Below, in pieces: positions 688-60,800 of a DNA stretch of 64,000 nucleotides. Position numbers and translations under genes: made by a program. Source of the DNA: Phyllobates terribilis (lineage: Eukaryota); contig NW_027362763.1 in NCBI RefSeq assembly GCF_046119375.1, positions 359,538,001 through 359,602,000 of the forward strand. The letters are read 5' to 3'. How positions within the stretch are numbered: the first letter of the stretch is position 1; each line of letters starts with the position of its first letter. The notes beneath the pieces are model-generated. The model was not told the DNA's origin. It did no database searches and worked only from the letters and a program-made list of their open reading frames with translations.

Positions 688-15360
<14,673 letters not shown>

Positions 15361-24800: not shown

Positions 24801-27800
24801 GAGGAAATTTGTACAGTGTCTGACAAATCAAAATTTGAGATTTTTGGTACCATTTGGCCTTTGTGAGACACAAGAGGTGAGCGGATGGTTTTTGAACGTG
24901 TGGTCCCCAATGTGAAGAATGGAGACGGGGGGAGTGTGATTGCATGGGGGTGCTTGCTGGTAACACTTGATAATTTATTCTAAATTCAAGGTAGACTTAC
25001 TCAGCATGGTGTCACGCTGTCTCTGTATACTGGAGGTAGGGGGCCTAAGCTGACCCTAAGCTGGGGCCCTGACTAATCCCTCAACCTGGAGGTACTGTTA
25101 AAGGTACAGAGGTCCAGGCCGCCAGCGTAACCCCTACCTCCTGAAGATCCCTGCACCTCAGTAATCTAGTCCTGAGAAGGACCCCGATCACAACCAAAGG
25201 GAACAAGAAATAATATGCCCAAACACAGTATTTAAACGAACGAGACAGTACAAGGGAAAAACCAAAACCACCTTGCATACAAACAACTTCTCAACTACAA
25301 CAGAGGGAAAACCAACGGGAAAGGAGATAAATGATAAAGCGAGGAAAGGGAAAAAACACTTCCAAATACACTTATCTCAGCAACTCCAAACACCACGATC
25401 CGCTCTGTCAGTCTGAATGAAATGCTTTCACCGACACCTCCCAAACAGACCAGCAGGTATATGAAGGAGTCTCACTACAGAAGTATTGATTGCAGCTGGG
25501 CGAGGCTGGACCTCATCTAGCCCAGAGAGAGAGAGAGAATTAACTCCCTCACTGCCGAGAAACACAAAGCACCAACAAGTCAGCTGCGAGAAGTCAGGCT
25601 GTGTACTCGTGACGATCTTCGTGGCAACACACCCGTGACAGTACCCCCCCTTCTACGAGGGGCCTCCGGACCCTCAGGGCCAGGTTTATCCGGATGAGTC
25701 GTGTGGAAGGCCCGAACTAATCGGTCTGCGTTAATATCCGACGCAGGAACCCACATCCTCTCCTCAGGACCATACCCCTTCCAATGAACCAGGTACTGAA
25801 GGGACCGGCGATTAAAGCGTGAATCAATGACCCTCGATACCTGGAACTCCAAGTTACCATTGACAACCACTGGAGGGGGAGGTAAAAGTGACGGTACCAC
25901 CGGCGCCACATACCTCTTAAGCAATGATCTGTGAAACACGTTGTGAATTTTAAACGTAGGGGGGAGGTCAAGACGGAATGCCACCGGATTAATAATAGAA
26001 CTGATTCTGTACGGCCCGATGAACCTGGGACCCAGTTTCCAGGAGGGAACCTTAAGTTTTATATTCCTGGTAGACAACCATACCCGATCGTTCACACTTA
26101 GGTCCGGACCAGACACTCTCCTCCTATCAGCCATACGTTTGTATCGGTTCCCCATAGTATTCAGATTCTTCAGCACCCCTCTCCATACTGAAGCGAGTGA
26201 TGAGGAAAATCGTTCCTCCTCAGGAACCCCCGAAGAGCCCCCCCCACTGAAAGTACAAAACTGGGGTGAAAACCATATGCCCCAAAAAACGGGGACTTAC
26301 CAGTGGACTCGCTCCGCCTATTATTAAGAGCAAACTCTGCCAGAGGTAAGAAAGAAGCCCAGTCCTCCTGGTTCTCTGACACAAAACACCGGAGATATGT
26401 CTCCAAGCTCTGGTTCATACGTTCCGTCTGACCATTGGTCTGAGGATGAAAAGCCGATGAGAATGACAACTGCATCCCCCGCCGAGCACAAAACGCCTTC
26501 CAGAACTTAGACACAAACTGAGACCCCCGATCAGACACCACCTCGGAGGGTACCCCGTGAAGCCTCACAATCTCCCCAATGAACACCTGCGCAAGAGTTT
26601 TAGCATTAGGGAGAGCCGGAAGAGCGATAAAATGTGCCATCTTGCTGAACCTGTCCACTACAACGAGTATGACCGTTTTACCCGAAGACGGAGGGAGGTC
26701 CGTAATAAAGTCCATAGACAGATGAGTCCAAGGACGCTCCGGGATCTTCAAAGGTAAGAGGGCCCCAGACGGACGGGTATGTGAGGTCTTAGAGCGCGCA
26801 CAAACCCCACAGGACGCGACAAAAGTTACCACCTCCTTATGTAAATTAGGCCACCAAAACCGACGCGAGAGGAGATCCACAGTAGCTTTACTCCCCGGGT
26901 GTCCTGCAAAAACTGAGTTATGGTGTGCCTCGATCACCTTTTGTCGCAACTGATCTGGAACAAACAATCTCCCTGGAGGTCCAACAGGGGCGTCCCCCTG
27001 AGCCTCCAATACCTCCTCCTCCAGCTCAGAGCATACTGCCGAAACCACCACCCCCTCCTGAAGGATAGGAATCGGGTCGTCCGTATTCCCGGCCCCCGGG
27101 AAACTACGAGATAAGGCATCCGCCTTTACATTTTTTGACCCAGGACGATATGTAACGACAAAATTAAACCTGGTAAAAAACAATGACCACCTAGCTTGTC
27201 TGGGATTCAGACGTTTCGCGGACTCCAGATATAGCAGGTTCTTGTGATCGGTGATGACGGTGACCGGATGAACAGCCCCCTCCAGAAAATGGCGCCACTC
27301 CTCAAAAGCTAACTTAATGGCCAAGAGTTCCCTATTGCCGACATCGTAATTCCTCTCAGCGGACGACAATTTTTTAGAGAAAAAGGCGCACGGATGCCAC
27401 TTACCAGGGGACGAACCCTGTGACAATACTGCTCCCACCCCTACCTCGGAAGCGTCTACCTCTACAATGAATGGCTGAGACGCATCAGGTTGAATGAGTA
27501 TGGGCGCCGAGGCAAAACATTTTTTCAAAGAGGAGAATGCTTGACAAGCCTTGTCAGACCACCTAGAAAAATCCGTCCCCTTTTTAGTCATGTCAGTGAG
27601 AGGCTTAACCATGGACGAGAAATTACGAATGAACTTCCGGTAATAATTAGCAAACCCCAGGAAACGTTGTAGTGCCTTAAGATTCTCTGGCCGATCCCAC
27701 TCAAGAACTGCCCGCACTTTCCCAGGGTCCATACGAAAACCGGACGCTGAAACCAGGAAGCCTAAAAACTGGAGTTCCTGTACGGCGAACACACACTTTT

Positions 27801-30800
27801 CCCACTTGGCATACAGTTTATTATCCCGCAAGATCTGTAACACCTGCCTAACGTGCTCCTGATGAGACACCAGATCCGGCGAGTAAATTAGGATATCATC
27901 CAGATATATGACAACAAACTGTCCCACCAAGCGGCGAAAAATGTCATTAACAAAGTGTTGGAACACCGCCGGGGCATTAGTCAGACCGAATGGCATGACA
28001 AGGTTCTCATAATGCCCCTCCGGAGTGTTAAACGCCGTCTTCCACTCATCCCCCTCCTTCATCCTAATCAGATTGTACGCCCCCCTGAGATCCAACTTAG
28101 AAAACCATTTGGCGCCCACGATCTGATTAAAGAGATCGGGAATAAGTGGGAGCGGATACGGATCTCGGACCGTAATCCGATTAAGTTCACGGAAATCCAG
28201 GCAAGGGCGTAGGCCTCCATCTTTCTTCTTAACAAAGAAGAACCCCGCAGCCACCGGTGAAGATGAAGGTCTAATATGCCCCTTAGCCAGACTTTCTGAG
28301 ATATAATCCTTCATGGCCTGCCTCTCAGGACCAGAAAGGTTATACAACCTAGCTTTAGGTAACTTGGCCTCAGGGAGCAGTTTTACAGAACAGTCATACA
28401 CGCGATGAGGAGGTAGTTCCTGACACCCTTTCTCCGAGAATACATCCTCAAAGTCCGCCAGAAATGGAGGTAAGACCCAAGGAGTAACCGCACCAATGAC
28501 CGTGTTCATGCAGTTTTTATTACAGAATTTACTCCATTGGCTTATCTCCCTGGTTTGCCAATTAATAACCGGGTTATGCTTAGCTAACCAAGGAAGGCCC
28601 AACACAATAGGAGTGGGAAGACCCTCCAACACGTAGCAAGACAACAGTTCTTTATGTATAGCCCCCACTTGAAGTTTTACGTCATGCACAACTTGCAAAA
28701 AACTTCCCTGCCCGAGAGGCCTGGCATCGATCGAGAATATGGGGATGGGTTTAGCCAACTCACTCAACCGCATACCTTGAACCCGGGCAAACCGAGCATC
28801 AACCAGATTAGCCCCGGCCCCACTATCCAGAAGAACAGATATCCTCTCAGTTCTCGTACCCACCACCACCTCCGCCGGTACGAGAAACTGAGACGAACCT
28901 AGGGACGAAATACCTACTCCCAGATTGCCGTCCACCACACAACCTGGGATCAACAGTTTTCCGACGACTCTTCACTCTGCAAGGGACGGGATGGACACCC
29001 CCCAATAAAATGTCCCTTTCTCCCGCAGAAGAAACACCTTCCTGCCTTATGGCGCACCACCGGTCCCCTCCCCCGAAATGATGTCCCTCCTAATTGCATA
29101 GGCTCCTCAGGACTGACCAGGGGAACCACCATATGAGGGGACCTTGTAGGAGGTGGAGTCATCACAGGGGGTAGAGTTATCCCGCACCTCTCCCGAAGCC
29201 GTCTGTCCACGCGAATAGCGAGGGCCATAGCGGCTTCCAGAGACACGGGAGAGTCATACTGTGCCAACACATCCTGTAATTTGTCGGATAAACCATGACA
29301 AAACTGGCTCCTAAGAGCCGGGTCATTCCACTGGGTGTCCGTGGCCCACCTACGGAACTCCGAACAGAATTCCTCCGCCGGACGATCTCCCTGCTGGATC
29401 CTACGTAACTTAGACTCAGCAAGGGAGATCCGATCTGGGTCATCATATACGAGTCCCAGGGCAGCGAAAAACCTATCCACTGACTGGAGAGCCGGGGAAC
29501 CCGGGGGAAGAGAGAACGCCCAAGATTGTGGGTCCCCTTGTAGGAGCGAGATGACAATTCCCACCCTTTGTTCTTCACTCCCCGATGACCGAGGCCGCAG
29601 CCGAAAGTACAATTTACATGCCTCCCGGAAAACAAAAAACTTGTCCCGCCCCCCAGTGAACCTATCAGGGAGAGCTACTTTAGGTTCTGGTCCGGCTTGC
29701 TCCTGAGGATGCCAAACCTTGGACCTAACGTCCGCCAGCTCCATGGACAAACTCTGCAATTGCCGAGCTAGACCGGCTACTGGATCCATAGTAGCTGGAG
29801 AAAAACTAAGTGGGTCGGTGAAAATGTCACGCTGTCTCTGTATACTGGAGGTAGGGGGCCTAAGCTGACCCTAAGCTGGGGCCCTGACTAATCCCTCAAC
29901 CTGGAGGTACTGTTAAAGGTACAGAGGTCCAGGCCGCCAGCGTAACCCCTACCTCCTGAAGATCCCTGCACCTCAGTAATCTAGTCCTGAGAAGGACCCC
30001 GATCACAACCAAAGGGAACAAGAAATAATATGCCCAAACACAGTATTTAGACGAACGAGACAGTACAAGGGAAAAACCAAAACCACCTTGCATACAAACA
30101 ACTTCTCAACTACAACAGAGGGAAAACCAACGGGAAAGGAGATAAATGATAAAGCGAGGAAAGGGAAAAAACACTTCCAAATACACTTATCTCAGCAACT
30201 CCAAACACCACGATCCGCTCTGTCAGTCTGAATGAAATGCTTTCACCGACACCTCCCAAACAGACCAGCAGGTATATGAAGGAGTCTCACTACAGAAGTA
30301 TTGATTGCAGCTGGGCGAGGCTGGACCTCATCTAGCCCAGAGAGAGAGAGAGAATTAACTCCCTCACTGCCGAGAAACACAAAGCACCAACAAGTCAGCT
30401 GCGAGAAGTCAGGCTGTGTACTCGTGACGATCTTCGTGGCAACACACCCGTGACACATGGCTACCATAAAATTCTGCAACATGCCATCCCATTTTAGTAG
30501 GACCATTATTTGTGTTGAAACAGGAAAATGACCCAAAACAGAACTCCAGGCTATGTAAGGGCTATGTGACTAGGAAGGAGAGGGACGGAGTGCAGTGTCA
30601 GATGACATGACCTCCAAAAATCACCAGACCTCAGCCGAAATGAGATAGTTTGGGATAAGTTGGACAGTAGAGTGAAGGCAAAGCAACCAACAGGCACTCA
30701 GCACCTCTAGGAACTCCTTAAAGATTGTTGGAAGCCATTCCAGGTGACTACCCTTAAGCTGCTTGAGAGAATGCCAAGGGGTATAAATCTGTTATCAGAG

Positions 30801-33800: not shown

Positions 33801-36800
33801 GACATAGCAGTCGGTCAAGGAAACTTAGTGCAGCAGATGGGACGCATCATGCTTACTTTCCTTGGTAACTGAAAGCTGTCCAGCAGTGCCATCAGCTCAC
33901 TACTGGTTACAACCAGTTGGACCAGCTACACCCTTCTATTTGAGAAGTTGCCTTCATGTAAGAATTGCGGCCAAAAGCCATACCTTCATAATGAAAACAA
34001 GACCAATTGACTCAACTAAGCATGAAAATACAGGAACTGGGGTGCAGAAAAATGGCAGCGGGTTCTCTGGACTCAATGAAATATTTGGCTGTAACAGAAA
34101 GCAGCTTGTTTGCTTAAAGGCTGGAGAGCAGTACAATAATGAGTGTCTCCAGGTAACAGTGAAGCATGGTGGAGGGTCCTTGCAAGTTTGAGGCTGCAAT
34201 TTAACAAATGGAATTGGAAAATTGGACAGGATTAATGGTGTCCTCAATGCTGAGAAATACACGTAGATACTTATCAGTGATGCAGTACCATCAGGGAAGT
34301 GTCTTGGTTCCAAATTTATTCTGCAGTAGCACAACCACCCTAAACATGCAGCCAATGGCATTAAGGCATTTTTCCTTCCGTGTGAAGAAGAAAAAGGAGT
34401 CCTGGAAGTGTTATGGCCTCCTCAGAACCCTGATCTCAACATCATGTCTGTCTTGGATTCTGAAGGATTTACACAAGCCTACATCCACATAAGATCTGTG
34501 GTTATTTCTCTAAGACGTTTGGAACAAGCTACCTGCCAAGTTTCTTCAAAAACTGTGTACCTAGAATAGATACTTTGTGTAGTGCCGGCGTCCCTGCCCT
34601 CTGCTAGGCAGGGACGCTGCTCCCCTCACCGCTCTGCTCCGTGCCCGGCTTCCTCTCCCCGCTCTGCTGTCAGCGCGCGCTCCGTCCCGGCGTCCTCCTC
34701 CTGCTCTGCTCTCAGCGCGCGCTCCTTCCCGGCCCCTGTGCTTAGGGCGCGCGCTCCCCTCCTCTTAAAGGGGCCGCGCGCGCCGCCCTAAAGAGTCCCC
34801 GGCCAATGGCCGGAGGACTTCATCATATATAAGGCACCTCCTCCAAAATGGAGGTGCCCGAGCAATGTTGTTTGCACCTGTGTCTCACCTGTGCTTCAGC
34901 CCTCAGGTCCCGTTGCCAGTTACCTGCCAGTTTCCTGCTAGTTTCCTGCTAGTTACCTGCCAGTTACCTGCCTGATTCCTGCCTGAGTACTTGTTACCTG
35001 TCTGCCAGTCTGAGGTCCGACGGTCTGCCTTACTACTCCTGTCAGTCTGTCTAAAGGACCAGCCTGCCCGCTCACCTGGGAGCGCATATCAGCTACCTGC
35101 CTGCTTGCCTGAGGTCCGACGGTCTGCCTTACTACTCCGGTCAGTCTGTCTATGGACCAGCTTGCCCGCTCACCTGGGAGCGCTTCTCCGTTATCTGCCT
35201 GCTTGCCAGCCCGGAGGCTCCGTTGTCACGTGCTGTGACCACCAGCTATCTCAGAGACTCTTGCCCGCTCACCTGGGAGCGCATCTCCGTTACCTGCCTG
35301 CTTGCCAGCCCGGAGGTCCCGTTGTCACGTGCGGTGACCACCAGCTATTCCAGAGACTCTTGCCCGCTCACCTGGGAGCGCTTCTCCGTTACCTACCTGC
35401 CTGCCAGCCCGGAGGTTCCGCCGTCACGTGCCGTGACCACCTGCTATTCCAGAGACTCTCGCTTGCTCACCTGGGAGCACACATCTACCATCTGCCTGCT
35501 AGCCTACCCGGAGGCTCTGCCATCACAGGTCGTACCTACCCCTTACCCAGAGACTGCCCTGATCACTTGCCGTAACTCCCTGTCCGTTCACCCAGAGACT
35601 GCCACCCGCTCCCTTACAAGGGCCGCCCCCTTGTATAGTAGCTCAGAGGTTCCGCCTCCCGGACCCGTTACAGTCCGCCTCCCGGACCCGTTACAGTTTG
35701 CTCGGGCCATGGAACCCGGTGGCACCCAAGCTCCCTCGCTCTCGGACCTCTGTCTTGAACTGTCCCGTCAGAGGTCCCAACAGGAGGCCATCCTGGGTCA
35801 CCTGCGGAATGTTAATACTCGCCTGAACACTCTGTCTGATCCACCAACAACCTCCGCCAGTGCCATATCTTGCAATCCGGCAGCTCCGCTGCCCACTAAT
35901 ACTATGGTATCCTACCCCGGACCCCGGCTTTCTGCACCTCCTCGCTTCGGAGGCGACCCCGTCCAGGCTCGGGGCTTCTTAAATCAGTGCACCCTGCATT
36001 TTGAACTTTTGTCCTACCAGTTTAACTCCGACCGGGCCAAAATTGCCTTCATCATGTCCCATCTCACCGGGGAGGCCCTGGCCTGGCTGAATCCTCTATG
36101 GGAGAGAGGAGACCCCCTGGTGTCCAACTTGCCTGCTTTTCTCACGGCTTTCCGGAAAGTCTTCGACGAACCCGGACGGAAGACCTCATCTGCATCATCG
36201 TTGCTACGCCTCCGTCAGGGGAGTCTCACCGTGGGCCAATATGCCATACGGTTCCGTACCCTTGCCTCGGAGCTGGCCTGGGATAACGACGCTCTGGTTT
36301 CCGTCTTCTGGGAGGGTCTGTCCGGCCGTATTAAAGATGAACTTGCCGGTCGGGACATTCCTACCACTCTCGATGACTTAATAACTCTTGCCACCCGGAT
36401 TGACCTACGGTTCCAGGAGCGTGCCAAAGAGGTCACCCGTGAGAGAAGGATTCCACATTTAGCTCCTACTTTCCAGAAACCCGTCATTCCCTCCATCTCT
36501 CCCCAGGTACACTCTCCTGAGCCTATGCAGGTCGACCAGACCAAGATGGTCAAAACCCGTCAGGACTCACGCCGTGCCGAGGGGAGCTGCTTCTACTGTG
36601 GCAGTAAGGAGCACCGGATCCGTGCCTGCCCGGAGAGGTCGGGAAACGCCTGTGTCTAGGTTCGCTCAGAGAGGTCCACCTAGACAAGAATAAATCCTCT
36701 CCATCCCTGCTGTTGTCAGTTTCGATCATCTACGGGGAGAACCGTTATTTCGAACTAGCCCAACTTGACTCTGGAGCAGCCGGGAACCTTATTTCACAGT

Positions 36801-39800
36801 CCCTGGTTGAGAAATACCGCATCCCCACCAAACCTCTGGCTGTACCCTTGTCTGTCGCTGCCGTGGATGGGGGCCTCTTACCTCGCCCCATTCAACTCAT
36901 CACCGAATCCATTACCCTGCAGGTGGGAATGCTGCATTCTGAAAGTATCTCCTTTCATGTTCTGCCTGGACTCTCTCACGCCCTCTTGCTAGGTCTGCCC
37001 TGGCTCCAGAGACATGCACCCGTGCTAGACTGGCAAACCGGAGAGGTCCTTCGCTGGGGACAAGACTGTCATAAAACCTGTCTGGTTCCCGTCCATCCCG
37101 TCTGTCCCTCTCCTACCCCAGCTAATCTACCTGGACTTCCGATTCCTTATTGGTCTTATGCAGATGTCTTTAATAAAAAGGAGGCAGAGACATTACCTCC
37201 ACATAGACCATACGACTGTCCCATCGATCTGCTACCCGGTACTACTCCTCCCCGTGGGCGTATCTATCCTTTATCCGCTGCTGAGACCCGGTCAATGTCC
37301 GAATATATTGAGGAGAATCTGGCCAGAGGATTCATCCGGAAATCTACCTCCCCGGCGGGAGCAGGCTTCTTTTTCGTCAAAAAGAAGGACGGCTCTCTCC
37401 GTCCCTGTATAGACTATAGAGGCCTAAACCTGATCACGGTGAAGAATAAGTACCCCCTTCCGCTCATTCCAGAATTATTTGATCGTCTGAGGGGGGCTAG
37501 GATCTTCACCAAACTGGACCTTCGTGGGGCGTACAACCTGGTTCGTATTCGTCAGGGGGATGAATGGAAGACGGCATTCAACACCCGGGACGGCCACTAT
37601 GAATACCTGGTAATGCCCTTTGGTCTCTGTAACGCTCCTGCCGTCTTTCAAGAGTTGGTCAATGACATCTTCCGGGACCTTCTCTACTCCTGCGTAGTGG
37701 TGTACCTGGACGACATCTTGGTCTTCTCTCCGGATCTCCAGACTCACCGGAGGGATGTTCGTCAGGTCCTGCTCAGGCTAAGGCAGAACCATCTCTACGC
37801 TAAATTTGAGAAGTGCCTCTTTGAGCAGACCTCGCTTCCGTTTCTGGGCTACATTATCTCTCAGACCGGCCTACAAATGGATCCTGAGAAACTGTCTGCC
37901 ATCGAGAAATGGCCCCGACCGGAGGGGTTGAAGGCCATTCAGCGATTCCTGGGCTTCGCCAACTACTACCGCCTCTTCATACCACACTTCTCTTCCCGGA
38001 CGGCCCCAATTTCTGCGCTCACCCGTAAAGGTACTAATCCCAAAGAGTGGCCACCCGAAGCAGAGGAGGCCTTTCTTTCCCTTAAACAGGCCTTCTCTTC
38101 CGCCCCGGTGCTGCATCGCCCAGATGGCAACAAGCAGTTCTTCCTGGAAGTTGACGCCTCCTCCTCTGGAGCCGGAGCGGTACTTACTCAAAAATCATCT
38201 TCCGGGAGGATGGTAACTTGTGGCTTCTTCTCTAAACTCTTCTCCTCCTCTGAGCGCAACTATTCCATAGGAGACCGAGAGTTATTGGCCATCAAACTGG
38301 CATTGGAGGAGTGGCGTTACCTGCTCGAGGGGGCTCTTCACCCGGTAATAATTTACACTGACCACAAGAACTTGGCTTACCTCCAGCATGCCCAGAGACT
38401 TAACCCGCGCCAAGCCCGGTGGTCCTTGTTTTTTGCTCGTTTTGATTTTGTCCTTCATTTTCGCCCGGCTGACAAAAACGTCAAGGCGGACGCCTTGTCT
38501 CGATCCTTTCTGGTGTCTGATCTCGAGGAGGATCCGAAACATATCATCGATCCCACCAGAGTAATGCAGGTGGCTCCCGTGAGTCTAAATCGTCTTCCTC
38601 CTGGTAAGACGTTCGTACCAGTACCTGATCGGGAGAAGATCCTACACTGGGGTCATTCGTCTAAACTAGCTGGCCACGCCGGTCAGAAAAAGACCCTCCA
38701 GCTTATTACCCGGCACTACTGGTGGCCTAACCTGCACAAGGATGTAATAGACTTTGTTTCTGCCTGTGTGTCCTGCGCCCGCAACAAAGTTCCGAGACAC
38801 CTGCCGGCCGGCCGCCTCCTACCTCTGCCAGTACCTGCTGCCCCCTGGCAGCATATAGCGATGGACTTCATTACTGATCTGCCCGTCTCTGCCGGTTGTA
38901 CGGTCATTTGGGTGGTCGCTGACCGCTTCTCCAAGATGGCTCACTTCATTCCACTGCCAGGTCTTCCGTCTGCACCCGAGCTGGCTAAAGACTTTATCCG
39001 CCACATCTTCCGTCTTCATGGCCTGCCCCGTCACATCGTGTCGGATCGTGGGGTACAGTTCACTTCCCGTTTCTGGAGAGCCACTTGTAAATTGCTGGAC
39101 GTCACCCTGGACTTCTCCTCCGCTTACCACCCACAGTCTAATGGTCAAGTGGAGCGGATCAATCAGAACCTGACCAGTTACCTTCGGCACTTCGTTAATG
39201 CCCACCATTCTGACTGGGTGGATCTCCTGCCATGGGCCGAATTCTCGTACAACAATCACGAGAGCGAGTCTTCCTCCAAATCCCCGTTTTTTGTAGTCTA
39301 CGGTCAGCATCCTCGGATCCCGTTTCCCGTCTCCACCTCGGCGGACAATCCGGCTGCGGAATCTCTTGTTAACAAATTTTCCTCCATATGGGAGAGTACC
39401 CGGTCCGCACTCCTTCTGTCATCCGAGCGTATGAAAAGACACGCTGACAAAAAACGTCTGGACCCTCCTCAATTCCGCCCTGGGGATAAAGTCTGGCTCT
39501 CGTCCAAATATGTCCGGCTCAAGATCCCTTCCTATAAGTTAGGGCCTCGGTTCATCGGCCCACTGGAGGTCATCAGTCAGATCAACCCGGTGGCCTATAA
39601 ATTGAAACTCCCGGCCAACTTACGGATCCCTAACTCCTTCCATGTGTCTCTCCTCAAACCTGTGGTGCTTAACTCTTTTTCCAAGTCTACAGGTACGCCT
39701 CCTGCTCCGGTTTCTGCTGAGGACGAGTTTGAGGTAGAGAACATTCTTGCCACCAAAAGGGTAAGAGGAAAGACCTTTTTCCTGGTAGATTGGAAGGGGT

Positions 39801-42800
39801 TTGGTCCTGAGGAGAGAACGTGGGAGCCCCGGGAGAACATCCATGCCCCTCTCATCCTAGCTAAATTTCTGTCTGGCCTAAAAAAGGGGGGGCCTAAAGG
39901 GGGGGGTACTGTAGTGCCGGCGTCCCTGCCCTCTGCTAGGCAGGGACGCTGCTCCCCTCACCGCTCTGCTCCGTGCCCGGCTTCCTCTCCCCGCTCTGCT
40001 GTCAGCGCGCGCTCCGTCCCAGCGTCCTCCTCCTGCTCTGCTCTCAGCGCGCGCTCCTTCCCGGCCCCTGTGCTTAGGGCGCGCGTGCGCGCTCCCCTCC
40101 TCTTAAAGGGGCCGCGCGCGCCGCCCTAAAGAGTCCCCGGCCAATGGCCGGAGGACTTCATCATATATAAGGCACCTCCTCCAAAATGGAGGTGCCCGAG
40201 CAATGTTGTTTGCACCTGTGTCTCACCTGTGCTTCAGCCCTCAGGTCCCGTTGCCAGTTACCTGCCAGTTTCCTGCTAGTTACCTGCCAGTTACCTGCCT
40301 GATTCCTGCCTGAGTACTTGTTACCTGTCTGCCAGTCTGAGGTCCGACGGTCTGCCTTACTACTCCTGTCAGTCTGTCTAAAGGACCAGCCTGCCCGCTC
40401 ACCTGGGAGCGCATATCAGCTACCTGCCTGCTTGCCTGAGGTCCGACGGTCTGCCTTACTACTCCGGTCAGTCTGTCTATGGACCAGCTTGCCCGCTCAC
40501 CTGGGAGCGCTTCTCCGTTATCTGCCTGCTTGCCAGCCCGGAGGCTCCGTTGTCACGTGCTGTGACCACCAGCTATCTCAGAGACTCTTGCCCGCTCACC
40601 TGGGAGCGCATCTCCGTTACCTGCCTGCTTGCCAGCCCGGAGGTCCCGTTGTCACGTGCGGTGACCACCAGCTATTCCAGAGACTCTTGCCCGCTCACCT
40701 GGGAGCGCTTCTCCGTTACCTACCTGCCTGCCAGCCCGGAGGTTCCGCCGTCACGTGCCGTGACCACCTGCTATTCCAGAGACTCTCGCTTGCTCACCTG
40801 GGAGCACACATCTACCATCTGCCTGCTAGCCTACCCGGAGGCTCTGCCATCACAGGTCGTACCTACCCCTTACCCAGAGACTGCCCTGATCACTTGCCGT
40901 AACTCCCTGTCCGTTCACCCAGAGACTGCCACCCGCTCCCTTACAAGGGCCGCCCCCTTGTATAGTAGCTCAGAGGTTCCGCCTCCCGGACCCGTTACAG
41001 TCCGCCTCCCGGACCCGTTACACTTTGTTACTATATTGAAGGCAAAAGGATGGTCACAACAAATATTGATTATATTTACGTATAATTCTATTTTGTTTAT
41101 GAACTAAGTCATCATCAGTACAGTGGCTCAGTGGTTAGCATTGCAACCGTGCAGTGCTGGGGTCCTGGGTTCAAATCCCACCAAGGACAACATCGGCAAG
41201 GAGTTTGTATGCTCTCCCCGTGTCTGTTTGGATTTCCTCCGGGTTCTCCGGTTTCCTCCCACACTCCAAACACATACTGATAGGGAATTTAGATGGTGAG
41301 CTCCAATGGGGACAGTGCCCATAATGTATGTAAAGTGCTGCAGAATTAATGGTGCTAGGTAAGTAAGCATAAATAATAACTATTAACACTTCTACTTTTG
41401 AAAGTATTCCTATACTGCAGCATTTTTCCACATCTGCCTAAAACTGTTGCACAGTATTAGAATAACTAAAAATTAGGCAGCACATCCAATATGGTGGAAA
41501 AAAAAAGGGTAAGGCTCCTTTATTCACCCACATCCGCTATGTTTCAGCGCTCTCTATGGAAACTTTCTCAGGCAATGTTACCTGCTCACATAGTGAGGTA
41601 TACATACCTGCTGCCATTACATGGAGTCATTAGCATCATCATGCAGATATAGATGGTAATAGTTTCTATCCTGTATCACAACGCATTCATATAGAAAAGT
41701 ACGATTACATGTGATATAACAAAGTGCCAAATTCAGATATTATTAATAGCTCGGCTGTTTCAATCAAGTGAAATAATTACCCCATAAGGGTCAGTCCTGT
41801 ATCAATAAAACAAACAGTTTTCTTGAGAACTCCCTAACTGTGGACTTGTAGTACTGCAAGTTTCAGCATACCACTACCCAGACATGCGTCCGATAATCAT
41901 GTCGGCACTACGCCAGTGAACTAGTGCATTAGAGACAGTGCACGAACAATGGCCGATGGGGAGGTGCATGTGCACTTCAAAACTGTCAACACCGGAGCTG
42001 CTGCAACCTCCACCTACTGTCTCCTTCCCCGTACCTGTAGAATGTAAGCCCGCAAGGGCAGGGTCCTCTTCCCTCTGTACCAGTCTATCATTGTTCATTT
42101 GTTACTGTAAGTGATATCGGTATTCTGTATGTAACCCCTTCTCATGTACAGCACCATGGAATCAATGGCGCTATATAAATAATAATAATAACTGTCACGG
42201 TAACGATCATTTTGACTAAAGGAATACTGGTAGAAGAGCATTACTTAGAAATTAACACTAGAGGGAGCCCAATGCGCATGCCTTCAAATGACAAGTCACT
42301 CCACAATAGGGAAGAGCGAAATTAAAGGGAACCTGTCGGAACATTCGACCTGCCGAAACTGAGGGCAACATGAATCATAGCGTGGACAGGGACGAGACTA
42401 GTCCAGCATTTCTAGAGGCGATAGACAGATCTCTCCCATGTGCGTATATAGGGAGCGACCTGTCAATCACTTGCAGCAACACTGAGAAGAGCCTAGTAGG
42501 GGTGAAGCTGGACTAGTCTCGTTTCCAGCTATGGTCCCCGGACAGATGTTTTAACTTTTTTTTTCTCTGAAACAAAACGGAACGTTTAAGAGAATATAGC
42601 TAGCTACAGTTATACAGCTAGGCTCGTGTTCCATGCTGCCTGAGTATGGGCATCATGAATCAGATGATAGGTTACTTTTAAAGGGAATTTGTCACAAGAT
42701 TTTTGTTACCACATTTGTGAGGATCATGATGTGGGCTAGAGACCCTGAATCCAGTGATGGATCACCTACTGGGCTGCTTGCGGTCGTATTTATTAAATCA

Positions 42801-45800: not shown

Positions 45801-48800
45801 GCCCATATCGATCCGGATTGGCCCTCAAGTGACCCGAAGGGGGAGGGGACTGAGGTTCCTTGCTGTGAGGAATTGTTTTCTACCCGCCTGAAGACGCCAA
45901 AGGTAAGGCTAAGGCTATCTCCACCATGGAAGGTGGCAGATCCAGTATCCCTGCATCTGCAGAGCCCAGCACGCCCTAGGCTACAGTGAGTAGTACCTGG
46001 GTGGTCATTAAGGAGTTCTCAGCCTCTCTTTTCAATGACACTAGATCTCCCCTCTTTCTAGTTACATGGGTCCCCTTCTCTTCCCCTTTCTTAGGAAGAC
46101 AAGGCCCCCGCTTCTAAGAAGGATAAAGACCAGCCCCGTAGATGTGGCATCTGTGCTAAAAAATTGTCCTCATCCTATAAGAAGAAGTTGTGCCAACCCT
46201 GTATGGATAAAATAATTAAAGAAGAAAACCCCTCGCTAATCGAGGAGCTAAGATCACTTGTTAAACAGGAGGTTCAGGTAATTATACAGGAGGTCCAAGC
46301 TCATTTTGCTGCCCTGCCTGTCTACTCCTCCTCCAGGCCCTCTCCACTTAAGAAGAGGAAGATTCAAGAGTTAGGCTATGTGCCCACGATGCAGAAATGC
46401 TCAGGATTTTTTCCTGAGCGCTTCTGCATCTCCCTGGCAGAAAAAAACGCATGCGGATTGTACATGCGTTTTCCTGCCAGGGACATGCGGATGTGAAGCG
46501 TTCTTCACTTGCATTTCCGCATGCGGGTTGACAAGCGCTTTCCAAGCGATTTTAGCATCACTTGGAAAGTGCTTGACAACTTGGTCACATTATATAAATC
46601 CATGCAACCGGCATAGATTTATATAGTGTGACCTGAGAGAATGTCAAAAAATAAATGTATACTTACCCTCCGATGGCCCCCGGTGTCCTGCTTCACTCCG
46701 TTCTCCCTTGCCGGCAGCGGTAACTGAAGGACCTGCCGACGTCAGCATCGCTTGACCCGTCACACGACTGACGTCAGCGCAGGTCCTTCATTCCATCGCG
46801 AAGTGCCGGGAAGCAAGGGCGCGGGCCGCCGGAAGGTAAATATATATTTTTTATTTTATTCTTTCTTTTACAGATTTTTTAATGGTACCTGGGTGTGGAT
46901 GAGACTCTCCTCTCCTCTACACCCGGGTACCATTCGCACATTAGAACGCGCCAATTACGCAAGTACAGATGCAGTCTTGCGGAATTGGCGCGTTCTAATG
47001 CAAGTCAATGGCGACGAAAACGCAGCACTTCCGCAAAATAATTGGTAGTGCTGCGTTTTTTTCCGCAATGATAATCCGCAGCGGAAATTTCCGCAGCATG
47101 TGCACAGCACATGCGGATTATCATTGGGGGACATGGCAGGCCTTCTACCATGCGTTTCTTAAGCGTTTCTGCAGCGTTTTTCAGCCTTAGACTCAGATGT
47201 GGTCTCTATTGACGCTAGTAGCTCCGCCTCTGATGATTTTGATGAAATAGCATCCTTAGGGCCTGCCAAAAAATGTAGAAATTGGAAGATATTATTTTTC
47301 CTCAGACAACTTAGAGGAATTACTGGACGCAGTTAGAGGCACTATGGGGCTGGAGGAAGTTGAGGTGCCCTGTTCTGTTCAGGATGAGATGTTTAGGGGC
47401 CTTAGATCATAAAAGCAGACGAGTTTTCCAGTTCATGAGGTCATTAGAGATCTCATCCGACAGGAATGGGAATCCCCGGAAAACCGTCTCACCACCCCTT
47501 CGGAATTAAAGCATAGATTTCCGCTGGAAGGTGAAGAATTTGAGTGGGACGTCCCTAAGGTGGACATCCAGGTGGCAAGGGTAGTGAGGAAAAGCTCACT
47601 TTCCTTTGAGGACTCATCCCAATTGAAGGATCCATTGGACTGGAAAATGGAAAGCGTCCTTAAAAAAATCATGGGAAACCTCCTTTGCCTCTCAAAAGGT
47701 CAATATTGCATCGACTTGTGTGGCCAGATACCTCTTCAAATGGCTCGCCCAACTAGAGGAACATCTGTCTTCTTTTCCAGGGCAGACCTGCTAGACTCCA
47801 TCCCTCTCATTCAAAAAGCAACGGGCTTCTTAGCGGACGCCTCGGCTGAGTCAGTCCGGATCGCGGCCAGAGCAGCTGTCTTACCCAATACTGCTCGCCG
47901 TGCATTGTGGCTCAAAACATGGAGTGGGGATGTCACCTCTAAGGTTAAACTCTGTTCCATTCCATTTCAAGGGAAATATGTATTCGGGCCAGCCCTTGAT
48001 GATATCCTGGAAAAGGCCTCGGACAGGAAGAAAACCCTTCCTGAACAGAAAAACTAAGAAACGTTCCTTTAGACCTTCCCAGAGTCACCCCGCACAATAT
48101 AGGGGAAAGGGAAAATTTGGGCGCTGGAGCTATCCTAAAGGCGGCAAGGGCCGTAACATCCTTGTACCCCAGCAACAACACGAGCAGCAGGACAAGCAAT
48201 GACTTGGTCTGTGCAGGGGGGCGCCTCTTGGATTTCTTTCCCCAGTGGTAGGCAATATCTTCCTGCCAGTGGATCCTCAATACCATCGAGGAGGGTCTTC
48301 TATTGGAATTCAAGAGTCGCCCCCCCCTCAGGTCCTGAGGATCACGTCCCTTCCTTCTCGGGAGCTCAGGAACTGCTTATCAGTTGGTCTGCAAAACCTT
48401 CTGAGATCCAGAGTAGTATCTCCAGTCCCCCCTGGCCGGGAGGGGACGGGTCACTACTCAAAAATATTCCTAATACAGAAACAGTCAGGGACCTCACGCA
48501 TCTTAATCAACCTGAAGTCCCTAAACCATCACATCAAATACAGACGATTCAAGATGGAGTCTATAAAATCAACTATTCCCTTAATAGGGAAAGATTACAT
48601 CATGGCAACCATAGACTTAAAAGATGCATACTACCATGTGCCGATTCATCAGTCCCACAGGAAGTTCCTGCGCTTTGCAATCTTCAGGGACAACATAACA
48701 GAACACTACCAGTAAAATGTACTGCCCTTCGACATCTCTTCAGCACCCCGGGTGTTTACGAAGATTATGGCAGAACTCATTGCACTCATCCAAAAACAAG

Positions 48801-51800
48801 GTGCCTGCATAATTCCATACCTGGACGACATGTTGATTGTCGCCCCTTCGGTGGTGACTCTCAATCTTCATGTTTTTATAACCTTAAAAACTCTTCACTC
48901 ATTAGGTTGGGTTCCGAACCTAAAAAAGTCGAAACTCCTTCCTTCGTCGAGGAGGAAATTCCTTGGTGTCTTGCTGGACTCCAACAAACAAACATCCTTT
49001 CTTCCGTTGGAGAATCAAACAGCTCTCAGAACCAAGATCTCAATTTTCAGACACCAGGAGAATCCAACATTGAGAGCGACAATGTCTGTATTGGGGTCAA
49101 TGACGGCCTGTATCCAGTCGGTATCGTGGGCCCAGACCCACTCAAGGCTCCTCCAGGATCATATCATATGATCTTGGAACAGACACAGGGACTCACTAAA
49201 CAAACAGACCAGGACCCCCGGTCGGGTAAAGCTTCTCTTTCTTGGTGGCTAAGCTCCCAAAATCTTCAAAGGGGGATTTCTTGGACCCAGGACCCTCTAA
49301 TTACAGTGACTACCAACGCCAGTATATGAGGCTGGGGAGCCATGGTGGCCCAGACTCCTTTTAAAAACAGATGGAGTCCCGAGATCAGTGCCAGATCCTC
49401 CAACTTCAGGGAGCTAAAGGCAGTAGAAAAAACGCTCAGAGCAGCAGTCGACCTAATCCAGTGTACTCACATCAAGATACTCTCGGACAATGTGACTACA
49501 GTTGCCTTCCTTGGTCATCAAGGAGGAACGAGGGTAGACAGCCTGAAACAGATCGCAGGTCGAATATTTTCTTGGGCAGAACATCTCCTATCACTTTCGG
49601 CAATTCACCTGAAAGGCTCAAACAACATTCAAGCAGACTTTTTAAGCAGGAAAGACATCCAGCCGGGAGAATGGAGCCTGGATCTTAAAATATTTCAGTC
49701 ACTGGTAGCAAAATGGGGTCTCCCCGAAGTAGCTCTCTTTGCCAGTTGCTTAAACGCAAAGCTTCCCCTCTTCTTTTCATTGGACAGAAGAGACAATGCC
49801 ATGAATTTGGACGCATTAGCCCATCCCTGGCATTTAAACTGGTCTATGCGTTTCCTCCAATTCCACGGATAGTTCTTGCTATCCAGAAAGTCAGGTTAGA
49901 GATAGTGGCAACAATTCTGGTAGCCCCTCTGTGGCCCAAAAGGCCTTGGTTCGGGGCCATCACAGAACTTTGCCTGGATGGCCTGGTGATACTTCCACAG
50001 GTCAACAACTTTCTCTCACAAAGCCCCCTATTCCACCCAAATCCTCAGTGGCTAAACCTTGCAGCCTGGTTACTGAAGCCGAGATCTTAAGCTCCAAAGG
50101 TCTCTCGGAAGAAGTTGTAATAACTCTTCAACAGAGTAGGAAACCAGTAACCAATGCTATCTATATACGGCAAAATATGGAAAAAATTCCTATCATGGTA
50201 CGCCCAGGATATTCCTGATACCGCACAGCCCAACATTGCTCGGATCCTTGATTTTTTTTACAGAGTGGATTGGAGTTGGGTCTCAAACCCAGTACTCTCA
50301 AGGTGCAGATTTCATCCCTAAGTTCCATATTCGACCAAGATTTGGCCTCTCACAGACGGATCAAGAGATACATGACTTCGGCTCTCAGACTTCACCCAAG
50401 AATTCAGTCTCATGTCCCATTCTGGGATCTTAATGTGGTGCTCAGGGGTCTAACCCTCTCTCCCTTCGAGCCTCTATCCTCCAGTACAATACAGACTCTC
50501 TCTCATAAGACTGCCGTTTTAGTAACCATCACTTCAGCACGGAGAGTAGGAGAACTGCAGGCTCTATCCATCAGAGAACCTTACATGAATGTGACTGAGG
50601 ATAGAATTACGCTTCGCCTGGACCCTTCCTTTCTCCCAAAGGAGGTTACGGATTTCCATCGTTCCCAGGACGTCATCCTTCCCTCCTTCTGCCAGAAACC
50701 TTCTAATTCAAAGGGAGCAGAGTTCCATCTCCTAGATGTCCGCAGAGTTGTCCTTTATTATCTTCAACAAACTGAGTCTTTGAGATTGGATGAAAATCTA
50801 TTTATACAACACTCAGGGCATAACAGAGGAAGGAAGGCAGCTAAATCCATTATAGCAAACTGGATTAAAAATGCAATTGGGGAAGCCTACATCAACCAAC
50901 AGATGGATCCACCGATTGCCTTAAAAGCTCATTCTACCAGATCTACATCAACTTCATGGGCCGAAAGAGCGGGCGCTTCTACAGAGCAGATTTGCAGGGC
51001 AGCTACATGGTCTTCCCTTCACACATTTTCCAAACATTATAGATTAGACTTATCCATTAGGGATTTAGCCTTTGGTAGGAAAGTACTACAAGCTATTGCC
51101 CCTCCCTAATAAAATATCGTTGGTATTCCTCCAATGCTGTCGTGGAAGGCGTATTGAGAAAATAGAATTAGTCCTTACCAGTAATTCGGTTTCTAGAAGC
51201 CTTCCACGACAGCATGAATTTCCCTCCCTATGGATTCCATATAACTGTCAGGTAACCATTTTTTTCCAGGTGATCTTGGTAAACACTGAGGACTGACGGT
51301 GGGGATGGGCTTTTAACCTCTCTATGTTCCTGTCCCCCAATAGGGCGTGGACAACATCCTCCAATGCTGTCGTGGAAGGCTTTTAGAAACCGAATTACTG
51401 GTAAGGACTAATTCTATTATCTTCTCTGTCAAGAACAACAAGGGGTAACAGAAGTGATGATATGGCCCCAGAGACTTCTGGTCGTATCATCGAGTCTGTC
51501 AGGGATTACAGTAAGAGACAGAAGGATTTGCAGAAGCAGATCTGTGGTTAGTACTCCAAGATGTCTGGAACAACCTCCCTGCTGAATTCCTTGAAAACAT
51601 TGTGGAACTGTACCTTGAAGAATTGATGTGGTTTCAAAGACACACCAAATACTGAATTGATTTAGATTTCACTAATGTTCATTAACTTTGTTAATAAAAA
51701 TTAACTTTTATTTTTTTAAAGCATTCTGTATTTGGACAAAAAAATTTCTTTCTACACATCTGCTTAAAACTTTTACACAGTACTGTGTGTCTCCAAAAAA

Positions 51801-54800: not shown

Positions 54801-57800
54801 TAGTCTGCGCATCGCGGTCCATGATGACCCTTAGGCCTCATTCAGATGTTTGTGAATCATATGTGATCTGTACATGCTGTGCCGAGTCAGGACTAGACCG
54901 TTTGTATACTCAGCCTGAGGTATGTAGACGTCTGAATTCATAGCAACACCAATGTACATGTATAGGGAGAGACCTGTCACTCCAGGGTAGGGGGCAGGGA
55001 GAAGATGCAGAGGACCCGCTTGTCTGACTAGTCCACAGCGCGGTATTGGTCCCCGGCGGCTATTAAATTATGTTTTTATCTAAAACAGTGTTTCTGAGTC
55101 AAACATGCCTGTGTGTGTGGTACATTTTGCCGGCAGATCGCCCATCATGTGTCAGCTGTCAGGTTCCCTTTATAAAGTGGATCTACCAGAGATCACTATA
55201 CAGGCTGCACACATTACTAATTAGATCTCTGCATCATTGTCGTGTAAATATGAATGTTCTGCCGACAATCAGCTTCTACATCTGTATCAGTGGGCCTTAA
55301 AGTGGATCTGTCGCCAGATTGTAAAATATGAACTGTATACATTTTTAAATAGATCTCCCAGACCTGGTGAGGCTGGTGTACAGTCATGGCCAAAAGTATT
55401 GAGAATGAGACAAATAGTAATTTTTCCAAAGTTTACTGCTTCATTTTTTGTAATGGCAATTTGCATATACTCCTGAATGTCAAAGAGTGATCAGCTTAAC
55501 AGCAATTACTGTACTTGCAAAGTCAATATTTGCCCAGAAAATGAACTTTAACCCCCAAAACACATTTCAACATCATTGCAGTCCTGCCTTAAAAGGAGCA
55601 GCTAACATCGTTTTAGTGATTAATCCATTAACACAGGTGTGGGTGTTGATGAGGACAGGGCTGGCGATAAATCAGTCATGATTAAGTAAGAATGACATCA
55701 CTGGACACTTTAAAAGGAGGCTGGTTCTTGGTATCATTGTTTCTCTTCAGTTAACTATGGTTATCTCTAAAGAAACACGTGCAGCCATCATTGCACTGCA
55801 CAAAAATGGCCTAACAGGGAAGAGTATCGCAGCTACAAAGATTGCACCTCAGTCAACAATCTATCGCATCATCAAGAACTTCAAGGAGAGAGCTTCCATT
55901 GTTGTCAAAAAGGTTCCAGGGCGCCCAAGAAAGACCAGCAAGCGCCAGGACCGTATCTTAAAACGGTTTCAGCTGTGGGATCGGACTACCAGCAGTGCCG
56001 AGCTTGCTCAGGAATGGCAGCAGGCTGGTGTGAGTGCTTCTGCATGCACTGTGAGGCGGAGACTCTTTGAGCAAGGGCTGGTTTCAAGGAGGGCAGCAAA
56101 GAAGCCACTTCTCTCCAGAAAAAACATCAGGGACCGACTGATATTCTGCAAAAGGTACAGGGAGTGGACTGCTGAGGACTGGGGCAAAGTCATTTTCTCT
56201 GATGAATCCCCTTTTCGATTGTTTGGGACATCTGGAAAACAGCTTATTTGGAGAAGAAGAGGTGAGCGCTACCACCAGTCTTGTCTCATGCCAACTGTAA
56301 AGCATCCTGAAACCAGGGTGGATAAAAATCAATGTTTTTTTTTAAAAAATCAAAAAAATTGGATTTTTTTGATTTAAATCGGATTTTTTTCAATAAACTG
56401 CTTTTTGAGGAAAATATTTTACCATCCAAAGGTTCTTCCATCATGAGATAAAGCTGAGTTGTTTAACTCAGTAGAATAAAGGCTGTATATGTGTAACATT
56501 CACAATGCCATGCTCTTCCAGAGGTTTCTGTAGGATTAGTGGGCAGTTTCTCTCCTATATTATCACAGACGCTCGCTTTACTTACGCAGTTCTCAAAACT
56601 GAATTTGACTCCGCAGAGGTCCCAGCCTCTTCTTCACGGCAAAAATGTTACAACATGAACAGAGTTGAGAAAAGGACCTTAATCCTATTGTTCTACAAAC
56701 CTATGAATACAGAATCAACCCCTTCAGTGCCAAGTCCAAGAAGTTAGACAATATGTTTCTGATTGTTTGGAGTGGAATAGATCTGCACAACACAAGAAGA
56801 CTGTGAATCTAAGTGTGAGGAAGAGGAAGGGCAAGCAGACAAGAAAATGAAAGTGAAACTTTGAGCACAATACTGCAGCATAGCCACAGACAGACAAGTC
56901 TGGATCTGTTTGTGTGTACGATCTGAGGTTTATTACATTCTTTCCTTATAATGGCAGCAGGCCGTAAAAGAGACCCAGTTTGGGAATATTTTAATGAAGC
57001 TCCTTCGCCTATCGGTAAGGCAGGCATGCGTGCAAAATGCAAACGATGCAACAAAGAGATGCAAGGCCTGGTGGCGCGAATGAGGCAACATCATGAGAAG
57101 TGCGGTGATGAAGATGACCAAAGAAACACTACTGAACAGGCAGGATCTGTTGGTAAACATTTTTATTGAATCCTATTTCTAAAGACTGAACTGTCATGTG
57201 TGAGAAAAATTATATTTCTTATTATTACTGCATGTTACTGTCATTTGGTACAGTTATGAAGAAAAACAAATATTCCTTTTGGGGCAGGGGCAGTGATGTG
57301 TTGTGTACAATAAGCAGAAATTGTATAAACAATAAAATAACAGCATTGACTTTTTTTGTTAAGGGGAATTCATGGATTCTGGAAACTATCCACCTCCAAG
57401 ATCACCATCATCCTGTTCTACAGTTTCAGAGTTATCCATCCAGGATAGTGCTTCATTAGCAGCAGCATCATCATCAGACACCCACAGCCACATATCACCA
57501 TCACCCAAAAGGAAGAAAAAACCTTTACCTCCTGGAACCACCATAGATAGGTTTGTGATAAGAACTAGCAGATTAGAAAAAGAGTTGATTGATGAAAAAA
57601 TTGCCCAGTTTATTTATGCAACGAACTCTTCTTTCCGTCTGACTGAGAACCCACATTTCATTAATATGGTTCAGTCACTGAGACCAGGATACAGTCCACC
57701 CAGCAGAGCTGATGTTGCAGGGAAACTGCTGGATCAAGTGTATGACAGAGAAATGGAGCAATGTGCAACAGCTCTGGAGGGTAAAATTGTTAACCTAAGT

Positions 57801-60800
57801 ATTGATGGGTGGAGTAATGTCCACAATGATCCTATTGTATGTGCTTGTATAACAACAGAAGAAGGTAAAGTCTTCCTTGCACAAACAACTGATACGTCAG
57901 GAAATGCACACACAGCAGAATACTTACAAGAAGTGGCAGTAAAAGCTATAACATGTGAACAAAAATTCAAATGTCTAGTACGCAGTTTGGTCACTGACAA
58001 TGCTGCAAACGTATCCAAGATGAGAAGAAATTTAGAAGAGCAGGGAGGGAATACAAAGCTGCTAATAACATATGGTTGCAGTGCTCATTTGCTGCACCTC
58101 TTAGCCAAAGACTTAAGTGTTCCAAAAATAAAGGCTAATGTTGTTGAAATTGCTACATACTTCCGTAATAATCATTTTGCTGCAGCAGCTCTGAAAAGGA
58201 TGGGTGGAACCAAGCTAACGCTCCCACAAGATGTTAGATGGAATTCTGTGGTGGACTGTTTTGAGCAGTATATCAAAAACTGGCCTATTCTGATGACACT
58301 TTGTGAAGAAAATCGAGATAAAATAGATGGCACTGTCACGGCCAAAATCCTCAACATTGGGCTTAAGAGAAATGTTGAACATATGCTGAGCTTCCTGAAA
58401 CCCATCTCTCAAGCTTTAAACAAAATACAGAAAAATAGCTGTTTTATTGCGGATGCTGTTCAAATATGGAAGGAACTGAGTGAACACTTAAAAACAGAAC
58501 TACACATGGACAGAATTAAATTACATGCAGTAAACAAATGAATGGGACAAGCACTGACTCCAGCTCATTTTTTGGCAAATATTGTCAATATCCAACATTG
58601 CTGCCCTTCTACCATGCGTTTTTCATGCGTTTCCGCGGCGTTTACGCAACTGCAAAAACGACGCGGAAACGCATGAAAAATGCATCGTGTGAACTCAGCC
58701 TTAAGGTCAGGATTATTTTTCTCCTTCCTAAGTACAACAAAACAGTGGTGTCCAAATATGAATGATTAACCCATTAAACTGGGGAGAAAAAAGTAATATA
58801 AAAAGTGATTCTAAAAATCTTCATCTACTTGCATGTTAAAGTAGCAAGAACTAGTTAGGTAGAAACTTTGATTTAAATCACTGATTTAAATCAAGCCTTA
58901 CTGACTAGTGATTTAAATCGTGATTTAAATCAGTTAGATTTAAATCAAATCCACCCTGCCTGAAACCATTCATGTGTGGGGTTGCTTCTCAGCCAAGGGA
59001 ATCGGCTCACTCACAGTCTTGCCTAAAAACACAGCCATGAATAAAGAATGGTACCAGAATGTCCTCCAAGAGCAACTTCTCCCAACCGTCCAAGAGCAGT
59101 TTGGCGCCCAACAATGCCTTTTCCAGCATGATGGAGCACCTTGCCATAAAGCAAAGGTGATAACTAAATGGCTCATGGAACAAAACATAGAGATTTTGGG
59201 TCCATGGCCTGGGAACTCCCCAGATCTTAATCCCATTGAGAACTTGTGGTCAATCATCAAGAGACGGGTGGACAAACAAAAAACAACAAATTCTGGCAAA
59301 ATGCAAGCATTGATTATGCAAGAATGGACTGCTATCAGTCAGGATTTGGTCCAAAAGTTGATTGAGAGCATGCCAGGGAGAATTACAGAGGTCTTGAAGA
59401 AGAAGGGGCAAAACTGCAAATATTGACTTGCTGCATTAACTCATTCTAACTGTCAATATAACATATTGGTACTCATAATATGATTGCAATTATATTTCTG
59501 TATGTGATATAAACATCAGACAAACACTAATAAAAACCAGAGGCCAGCAGATCATGTGAAAAAATAATTTTGGTGTCATTCTCAAAACTTTTGGCCATGA
59601 CTGTACTTACAAAATTCATGTCAGAGCAGCCGTATATTCTTTTTTTTAGGGAACATGCACAAGTTGTGGATTTTAAAGCAGACTTTCTGTTCCGTATCTG
59701 CAGCATTTCAAAATCCACAACATAAGTGCAGATTTTATTGAGAACTTCACCCCATGCAGCGCAGGAGAGAAGACCACAAAGAGTTATATAGATAAAACAG
59801 AATCTGATCTGGAGCAGCACAGATGTGAACTCCGACCAAGATGCCCAGGGATAGGGGGACTTGGGAAAAAGTCAGCGACAGGCCTGTGGAGTCGGTAAGC
59901 CAAACCAACGACTCTGAAATTCCCTTGACTCTGGCTCCATAGCACTGTCTCACTACTGAGCAAGTACATAAAGTGCAGCACAGATTCATCTCCACTAAAA
60001 GCAGAGATCCTTAGATCAGGAACAGAACAGACATTTATAGGACATTTCATAACTTTCCCAAATTCTTATGAAAACATTTACAGCACATCCTGCATTGTAC
60101 TAATGAACCCGATGTATTATATACAGGTGCATCTCACTAAATTAGAATATCAAAGAGTTTATTTATTTTAGTTCTTCAATACAAAAAGTGAAACTCATTA
60201 TTTAGAGTCATTACAAACAGAGTGATCTATTTCAAGTGTTTATTTCTGTTAATGTTGATGATTATGGCTTACAGTCAATGAAAACACAAAAGTCATTATC
60301 TCAGTGAATTAGAATACTTTATAACAACAGCTTGAAAAATACTTTTAAAATCTGAAATGTTGGCCTACTGAAATGTATGTTCAGTAAATGCACTCAGTAC
60401 TTGGTCGTGGCTCCTTTTGCATCAATTACTGCATCAATACAGCATGGCATGGAGGCGATCAGCCTGTGACACTGCTGAGGTGTTATGGAAGCCCAGGTTG
60501 CTTTGATAGCAGCCTTCAGCTCGTCTGCATTGTTGGGTCTGGTGTCTCTCATCTTCCTCTTGACAATACTCCATAGAGTCTCTATGGGGTTAAGGTCAGG
60601 CGAGTTTGCTAGCCAATCAAGCACAGTGATACTGTTGTTTTTAAACCAGGTATTGGTACTTTTGGTAGTGTGGACAGGTGCCAAGTCCTGCTGGAGAACG
60701 AAATTTCCATCTCCAAAAAGATTGTCGGCAGAGGGAAGCATGAAATGCTCTAAAATTTCCTGGTAGACGGCTGCACTGACTTTGGTCTTGATAAAACACA

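Follow-up and report, generated by a model that had tools for sequence, protein, structure and literature searches.

Two related chromoviruses in one window

The window, by which we mean the whole 64,000-nucleotide stretch of Phyllobates terribilis DNA that was analysed, holds two young Ty3/gypsy chromoviruses, here called element A and element B (Table 1). Each encodes a gag with a CCHC knuckle followed by protease, reverse transcriptase (RT), RNase H, integrase, an SH3 Tf2-1-like domain and a chromodomain, and in each the pol frame is -1 relative to gag, with the letters GGAAAAC (A) and GGGAAAC (B) at a junction where frameshifting is predicted. The features that define the Ty3/gypsy chromoviruses are thus all present, namely gag, the order PR-RT-RNase H-IN, LTRs of the form TG...CA, a target duplication and a C-terminal chromodomain (PF00385, E 6e-13 in A, where it stands in the frame that follows the pol break, and 4e-11 in B). 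Among solved structures the best matches are those of the Ty3 RT (4ol8, 7q5b). The two pol products share 54% identity; the nearest named proteins to both come from frogs and fishes, followed by fungi and an alga, and for part of its length the pol of B shares 98% identity with a protein named as coming from P. terribilis.

Table 1. Positions of the principal features of elements A and B in the window
Feature	Position	Strand	Remarks
Element A	25010-30455	-	Ty3/gypsy chromovirus
A 5' LTR, 631 nt	29825..30455	-	TGTCACG...CGTGACA; direct repeat with 25010-25640
A 3' LTR, 631 nt	25010..25640	-	repeat pair; CCATG on both flanks
A TATA-like box CATATA	30273..30278	-	from sequence; putative function
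A predicted self-primer GTCGGTGAAA(G)	30240..30250	-	predicted RNA 5' end G30250, at a T-G step
A LTR stretch pairing with 29803-29791, just 3' of PBS	30102..30113	-	candidate side helix, predicted
A LTR stretch pairing with 29838-29832, near LTR end	30057..30063	-	candidate side helix, predicted
A primer-binding site (PBS) TTTTCACCGAC, no TGG	29814..29824	-	from sequence; directly after 5' LTR end 29825
A gag, CCHC knuckle	28950..29789	-	Pfam Retrotrans_gag; pol follows in -1 frame
A pol: protease, RT, RNase H, integrase core	26170..28971	-	Pfam; frame stops inside integrase region
A integrase tail: SH3 Tf2-1-like and chromodomain	25641..26296	-	other frame; polypurine tract after
Element B	34578-41022	+	Ty3/gypsy chromovirus, LTR to LTR
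B 5' LTR, 1118 nt	34578..35695	+	repeat with 39910-41022
B predicted self-primer GCCCGAGCAA	34856..34865	+	TATA at -30
B PBS GTTTGCTCGGGC	35696..35707	+	from sequence; gag ATG at 35709
B pol with chromodomain	36608..40129	+	Pfam

Element A is a recent insertion; its two LTRs differ solely at 30050 and its target duplication of 5 bp is preserved on both flanks. Its pol is nevertheless broken in the integrase region (26296-26170, minus strand), despite LTRs with just this one difference. The LTRs of B (34578-35695 and 39910-41022) are separated by one substitution and two indels, and its target duplication is CTTTG. These LTRs contain 99-bp tandem repeats (34995-35555 and 40322-40882), and a stop-free frame (35055-36659) extends from the repeats through the PBS into gag; the final 23 nt of the LTR, including the att end, form a tandem duplicate in both copies (35650-35695 in the window). 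AATAAA or ATTAAA is absent from the LTRs of both elements; 31 of 40 relatives have one in the terminal 90 nt of theirs. Elsewhere in the window Pfam recognizes pieces of a Tc1/Sleeping Beauty-like transposase, a DUF659 frame and a LAP2alpha-domain frame (9711-10499, 55682-56377, 57363-58541 and 47413-48057), while the frames 48157-49329, 49330-49872 and 50252-51109 have no Pfam match; two tandem repeat arrays, with periods of 38 bp and 51 bp, lie at 61454-61848 and 62567-63378.

Complementarity between the leader and the PBS

The PBS of A adjoins the LTR end and lacks TGG, as a first-pass annotation of the sequence had proposed. That annotation had also recognized within the LTR a stretch, here termed the leader, that is complementary to the PBS, and had placed its start correctly in relation to CATATA, 28 nt from the C of the box and 26 nt from its first T. 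Ten Watson-Crick pairs join 30250-30241 to 29814-29823. The G.U that had been counted in addition to these ten (30240 with 29824) is possible but doubtful, as G30240 prefers 30098 in the ensemble fold (p 0.71). The same fold has leader positions 1-8 on the PBS with p 0.96-1.0 and positions 9 and 10 with p 0.66 and 0.45; compared with shuffles, the 471-nt fold of the predicted A RNA has a modest stability (z -1.93). In B the leader pairs with TTGCTCGGGC at 35698-35707. The duplexes of each leader with its own PBS reach -16.1 and -19.5 kcal/mol, against -4.3 and -1.3 kcal/mol when the partners are swapped.

A match of this length arose in 13 of 5000 dinucleotide shuffles of the LTR of A when the first 14 nt after the LTR were considered, and in 36 of 5000 when the first 20 nt were; for B the respective counts were 31 and 56 of 5000. 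With internal 14-mers of the elements as an empirical null, 22 of 4170 matched in A, at five places including the PBS, and 8 of 4200 in B, at two places.

The leaders of A and B had been described as completely different 10-mers. This is not the case: they have 6 of 10 letters in common in register, GGAGGT stands before both, and they are homologous. At each of the four positions that differ the PBS has changed too, which bears out the observation that the two pairs differ and yet stay complementary. A and B, which had been described as divergent families, are sisters in an RT tree of 19 rows that was built without named references (SH-aLRT 98); taken alone, the window therefore provides one contrast with four covarying columns. 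We also considered GGAGGT as a functional motif upstream of the leader and rejected it, since other letters occupy this place in close relatives of A.

Collection of related loci

Relatives were gathered by scanning metagenome contigs with an RT alignment, which gave 79 loci, 57 of them including the gag start; the families used have 55-64% RT identity to A or B. Guided by the att motif and the gag start, we assigned LTR ends manually to 43 of these 57 and left 14 without an end. Such curated ends were adopted because a strict automatic rule missed many loci and chose wrong ends in some, and they were not placed blind, the list of best matches having been seen beforehand. An LTR was classed as complete by a rule independent of the pairing, namely that the sequence from the polypurine tract to the LTR end be contiguous or that the pieces overlap; 15 loci qualified, representing 12 families at 90% RT identity.

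No relatives were found in the viral contigs searched, and a gag-based scan of genome contigs returned one weak match of 25 residues, which was set aside. Bacterial genome records gave 36 RT loci that are distant and mostly without LTRs. Chromovirus RTs in records titled as bacterial genomes (L001-L039) most likely represent eukaryotic contamination; among these loci, L038 contains long repeats in two pairs. The outcome of scanning 25 distant loci was noisy and was left uncounted.

Pairing is retained while the letters change

A TGG at 0-5 nt from the LTR end is absent from A, B and all 43 related loci. At least ten contiguous Watson-Crick pairs were found in 14 of the 15 loci with complete LTRs, and nine pairs in the other one; ten pairs were reached in 9 of the 28 loci with incomplete LTRs. 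When A and B are combined with the 12 families, 139 of 140 cells are paired across 13 different leaders, compared with 70 paired cells on average and at most 107 in 20000 partner swaps, these counts not being independent since the families are related. Eight disjoint pairs of related families differ in 20 columns, 19 of which remain Watson-Crick. The 19 families with a visible helix have 16 different leaders and display at least two pair types in all ten columns; as this set was chosen for at least nine pairs, its complete pairing (10/10) comes partly from selection, and the statement that position -1 never pairs would be circular in it, so that the complete-LTR set was used instead. The leader-PBS pairing is not due to chance, and the proposed self-priming architecture draws far more support from these relatives than from the two elements of the window.

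A few loci depart from this pattern. L108 has eight Watson-Crick pairs and one G.U, and its LTR is seemingly present though classed as incomplete; L059, with two LTR pieces between which there is no overlap, shows by eye a stretch resembling a leader, as far from TATA as expected and containing G.U pairs and a bulge; and L043, with an incomplete LTR, has eight pairs. Contigs of four coded sequencing runs were also compared. On one contig from organism D a letter is missing at 29815, inside the PBS (734 of a depth of 2210). Loose ends of contigs show the same leader in organism B with different letters upstream, and in organism C a relative whose leader, seen on its own, has a C at position 2. 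None of 40 listed substitution rows, to which 123 further rows belong, lies in the leader or PBS, and we draw no inference from this. All 19 families have a C directly after the PBS helix, where several distant loci have T; the idea that this C pairs with or copies the RNA cap is unsupported, given the T in the latter.

The helix begins at a predicted start site

A pyrimidine-purine step and a TATA box near -30 mark the starts of RNA polymerase II. We examined both in 18 families, L045 being left out since it repeats the leader of its sister; neither had been used in placing the helix, and the families are related. The helix begins at a pyrimidine-purine step in 18 of 18 families, against a mean of 4.1 and a maximum of 11 for random LTR positions (5000 draws). 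The best match to TATAWAWR between -26 and -32 averages 6.6 of 8 letters, against 4.1 +/- 0.2; in A it is 6 of 8, at -30. The position of the helix with respect to TATA and initiator-like letters, in both the spacing and the step, fits a self-primer that would be the 5' end of the RNA. As a separate observation, an inverted repeat, GCACCTCC...GGAGGTGC, lies at 34834-34857 between the TATA box and the predicted start of B; a comparably clear hairpin is absent from this interval in A.

Predicted side helices

Tf1 needs two further duplexes beside the PBS, in a three-duplex arrangement called the 'pretzel' (bioRxiv 10.1101/2022.12.06.519325). With the primer and PBS of A held unpaired, two candidate duplexes are predicted: 30113-30102 with 29803-29791, with pairs mostly at p 0.83-0.92, and 30063-30057 with 29838-29832 at p 0.76-0.77. 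In most related families (L040-L111), U5 is predicted to form a helix, starting 14-23 nt ahead of the LTR end, with the region of the gag start codon; the family's own pair is top-ranked among 18 for 6 of the 18 families. No such helix occurs in A up to 70 nt from the LTR end (rank 6 of 18, -8.8 kcal/mol), and the predicted side helices of B are weak or shifted. The U5 of A is also predicted to form a long stem-loop (29959-29847, minus strand), in which 29956-29949 pair with 29847-29854 (p 0.98-1.0) and which encloses 29939-29919, a stretch that could pair with the gag start.

A probable self-priming mechanism and its place in the Tf1/sushi group

These observations lead us to regard A as a chromovirus whose PBS matches its own LTR and which very probably primes reverse transcription with the 5' end of its own RNA, in the manner of Tf1. 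Transcription by RNA polymerase II would begin at G30250 or an adjacent letter, some 30 nt past the TATA-like box, and the first 10-11 nt of the RNA would fold onto the PBS 426 nt downstream. The subsequent steps are taken from the Tf1 literature: by analogy, the RNase H of the element would cut the RNA just past the paired stretch, and the freed 3' end would then prime minus-strand DNA. The primer of Tf1 is 11 nt long and is cut out by RNase H between bases 11 and 12 (PMC7175516).

Self-priming is an already described mechanism of the whole Tf1/sushi group, vertebrates included, a point that the first-pass annotation had left unmentioned. Self-primers have been described in this group from yeast and vertebrates (PMC6317226), the subject is also covered for Tf1/sushi elements elsewhere (PMC4600332), and self-priming has been called a common feature of the group (bioRxiv 10.1101/2022.12.06.519325). 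On its sequence features A would belong to this group: it has a chromodomain integrase, a CCHC gag, a -1 gag-pol frame and a 5-bp target duplication, it has a PBS complementary to its LTR in place of a tRNA PBS, and its LTR ends are close to the att motifs reported for Sushi (TGTYANR/CNTNACA; PMC3601003). It differs from the known members in family and letters, the comparison with sushi-ichi and Amn being one with their descriptions. There are also differences in spacing, since the helix of A ends 11 nt after the LTR rather than 12 nt as in most relatives, and its gag ATG lies 24 nt past the PBS as against 1-12 nt in 13 of 17 related families.

Tf1 and Tf2 of Schizosaccharomyces pombe, Tj1 and Tosmo1-3 are described as having an RNA 5' end complementary to a PBS adjacent to the LTR, and the same is predicted for A. 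The gags of these fission-yeast elements lack the CCHC knuckle and are encoded in one ORF or with an in-frame stop (bioRxiv 10.1101/2022.12.06.519325), whereas A combines CCHC with a -1 frame; unlike Tf1, moreover, A has ten Watson-Crick pairs plus the doubtful G.U, and its side helices are predicted ones. A further parallel is offered by the Tcn1 chromoviruses of plants, in which self-priming was predicted for 83% of 1500 elements by a rule that asks for 10 bp or more, beginning 0-5 bp past the LTR (PMC6317226). Both A (10 bp from offset 1) and B (10 bp from offset 2) conform to this rule, but they group with frog and fish proteins, unlike Tcn1 with its moss and club-moss hosts. The feature of A is real, correctly located by the first-pass annotation, slightly misdescribed there, and expected for the Tf1/sushi group. 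In a search that was thin on the subscription literature we found no papers on amphibian self-priming or its covariation. Covariation in vertebrate elements may already have been reported by Butler 2001.

Alternative explanations

The first-pass annotation had taken the covariation as a sign of selection on pairing rather than chance. Chance is indeed excluded, but selection was overstated: covariation does not by itself prove compensatory selection, since the primer can be copied into the PBS in the course of reverse transcription. In the strongest of the alternatives self-priming is accepted, and the covariation results largely from such copying, with the plus strand copying the retained primer and thereby carrying a change in the leader into the PBS of the daughter. 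We consider this a substantial possibility, though we incline against it. The scarcity of G.U pairs fits it, since they occupy 1 of 158 paired cells in the central helix and 18 of 274 in the predicted helix between U5 and the gag start of related families (Fisher p 0.003, for non-independent cells); RNase H cleavage and priming could, however, demand perfect pairs and remove G.U equally well, and the pairs of the side helix are RNAduplex predictions, biased towards G.U. Precedents exist on both sides. A copy of the PBS is reported to be kept at the 3' end of the Tf1 cDNA in about half of the molecules (PMC11042837), and HIV and MLV are described as inheriting the primer copy on one strand, while Ty1 and Ty3 strictly inherit the parental PBS (PMC7472051). 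Unpaired states, which argue against copying, are seen in L108 and L059, though these probably arose after decay. A stricter version, in which each round of copying in self-priming vertebrate chromoviruses rewrites the PBS from the primer of the element itself, so that leader and PBS change together and never go through G.U or mismatched states, we offer tentatively and as rather unlikely.

That the PBS instead binds a fragment of a host tRNA or another small RNA, with the match to the leader serving as a structural helix (in packaging, dimerisation or translation control), is improbable: priming by half-tRNAs is known in copia lineages (PMC6317226), but the letters of the PBS track the element's own leader (16 leaders in 19 families), which is impossible with a fixed host RNA, and the helix starts at the predicted start site. 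A chance match in either element, or in both, is of negligible probability, for although the single-element shuffle rates of 0.3-1.1% would matter in a genome-wide scan, the match has a fixed position in A, B and 15 of 15 complete relatives at nine pairs or more, and partner swaps never attain the observed total.

Implications for the evolution of probable self-priming elements

Self-priming by the element's own RNA thus remains our preferred reading for A, and its analysis extends a mechanism shown in Tf1 and predicted for vertebrate sushi-type elements by two frog families and 17 related ones, and supplies a clean table of covariation and a testable predicted start site. If the lock-step changes are the result of primer copying, covariation in these elements would have to be read differently, and they would stand apart from Ty1 and Ty3. 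Were the PBS rewritten in each round, the near-perfect covariation would be the footprint of copying, and each family would drift to a private primer.
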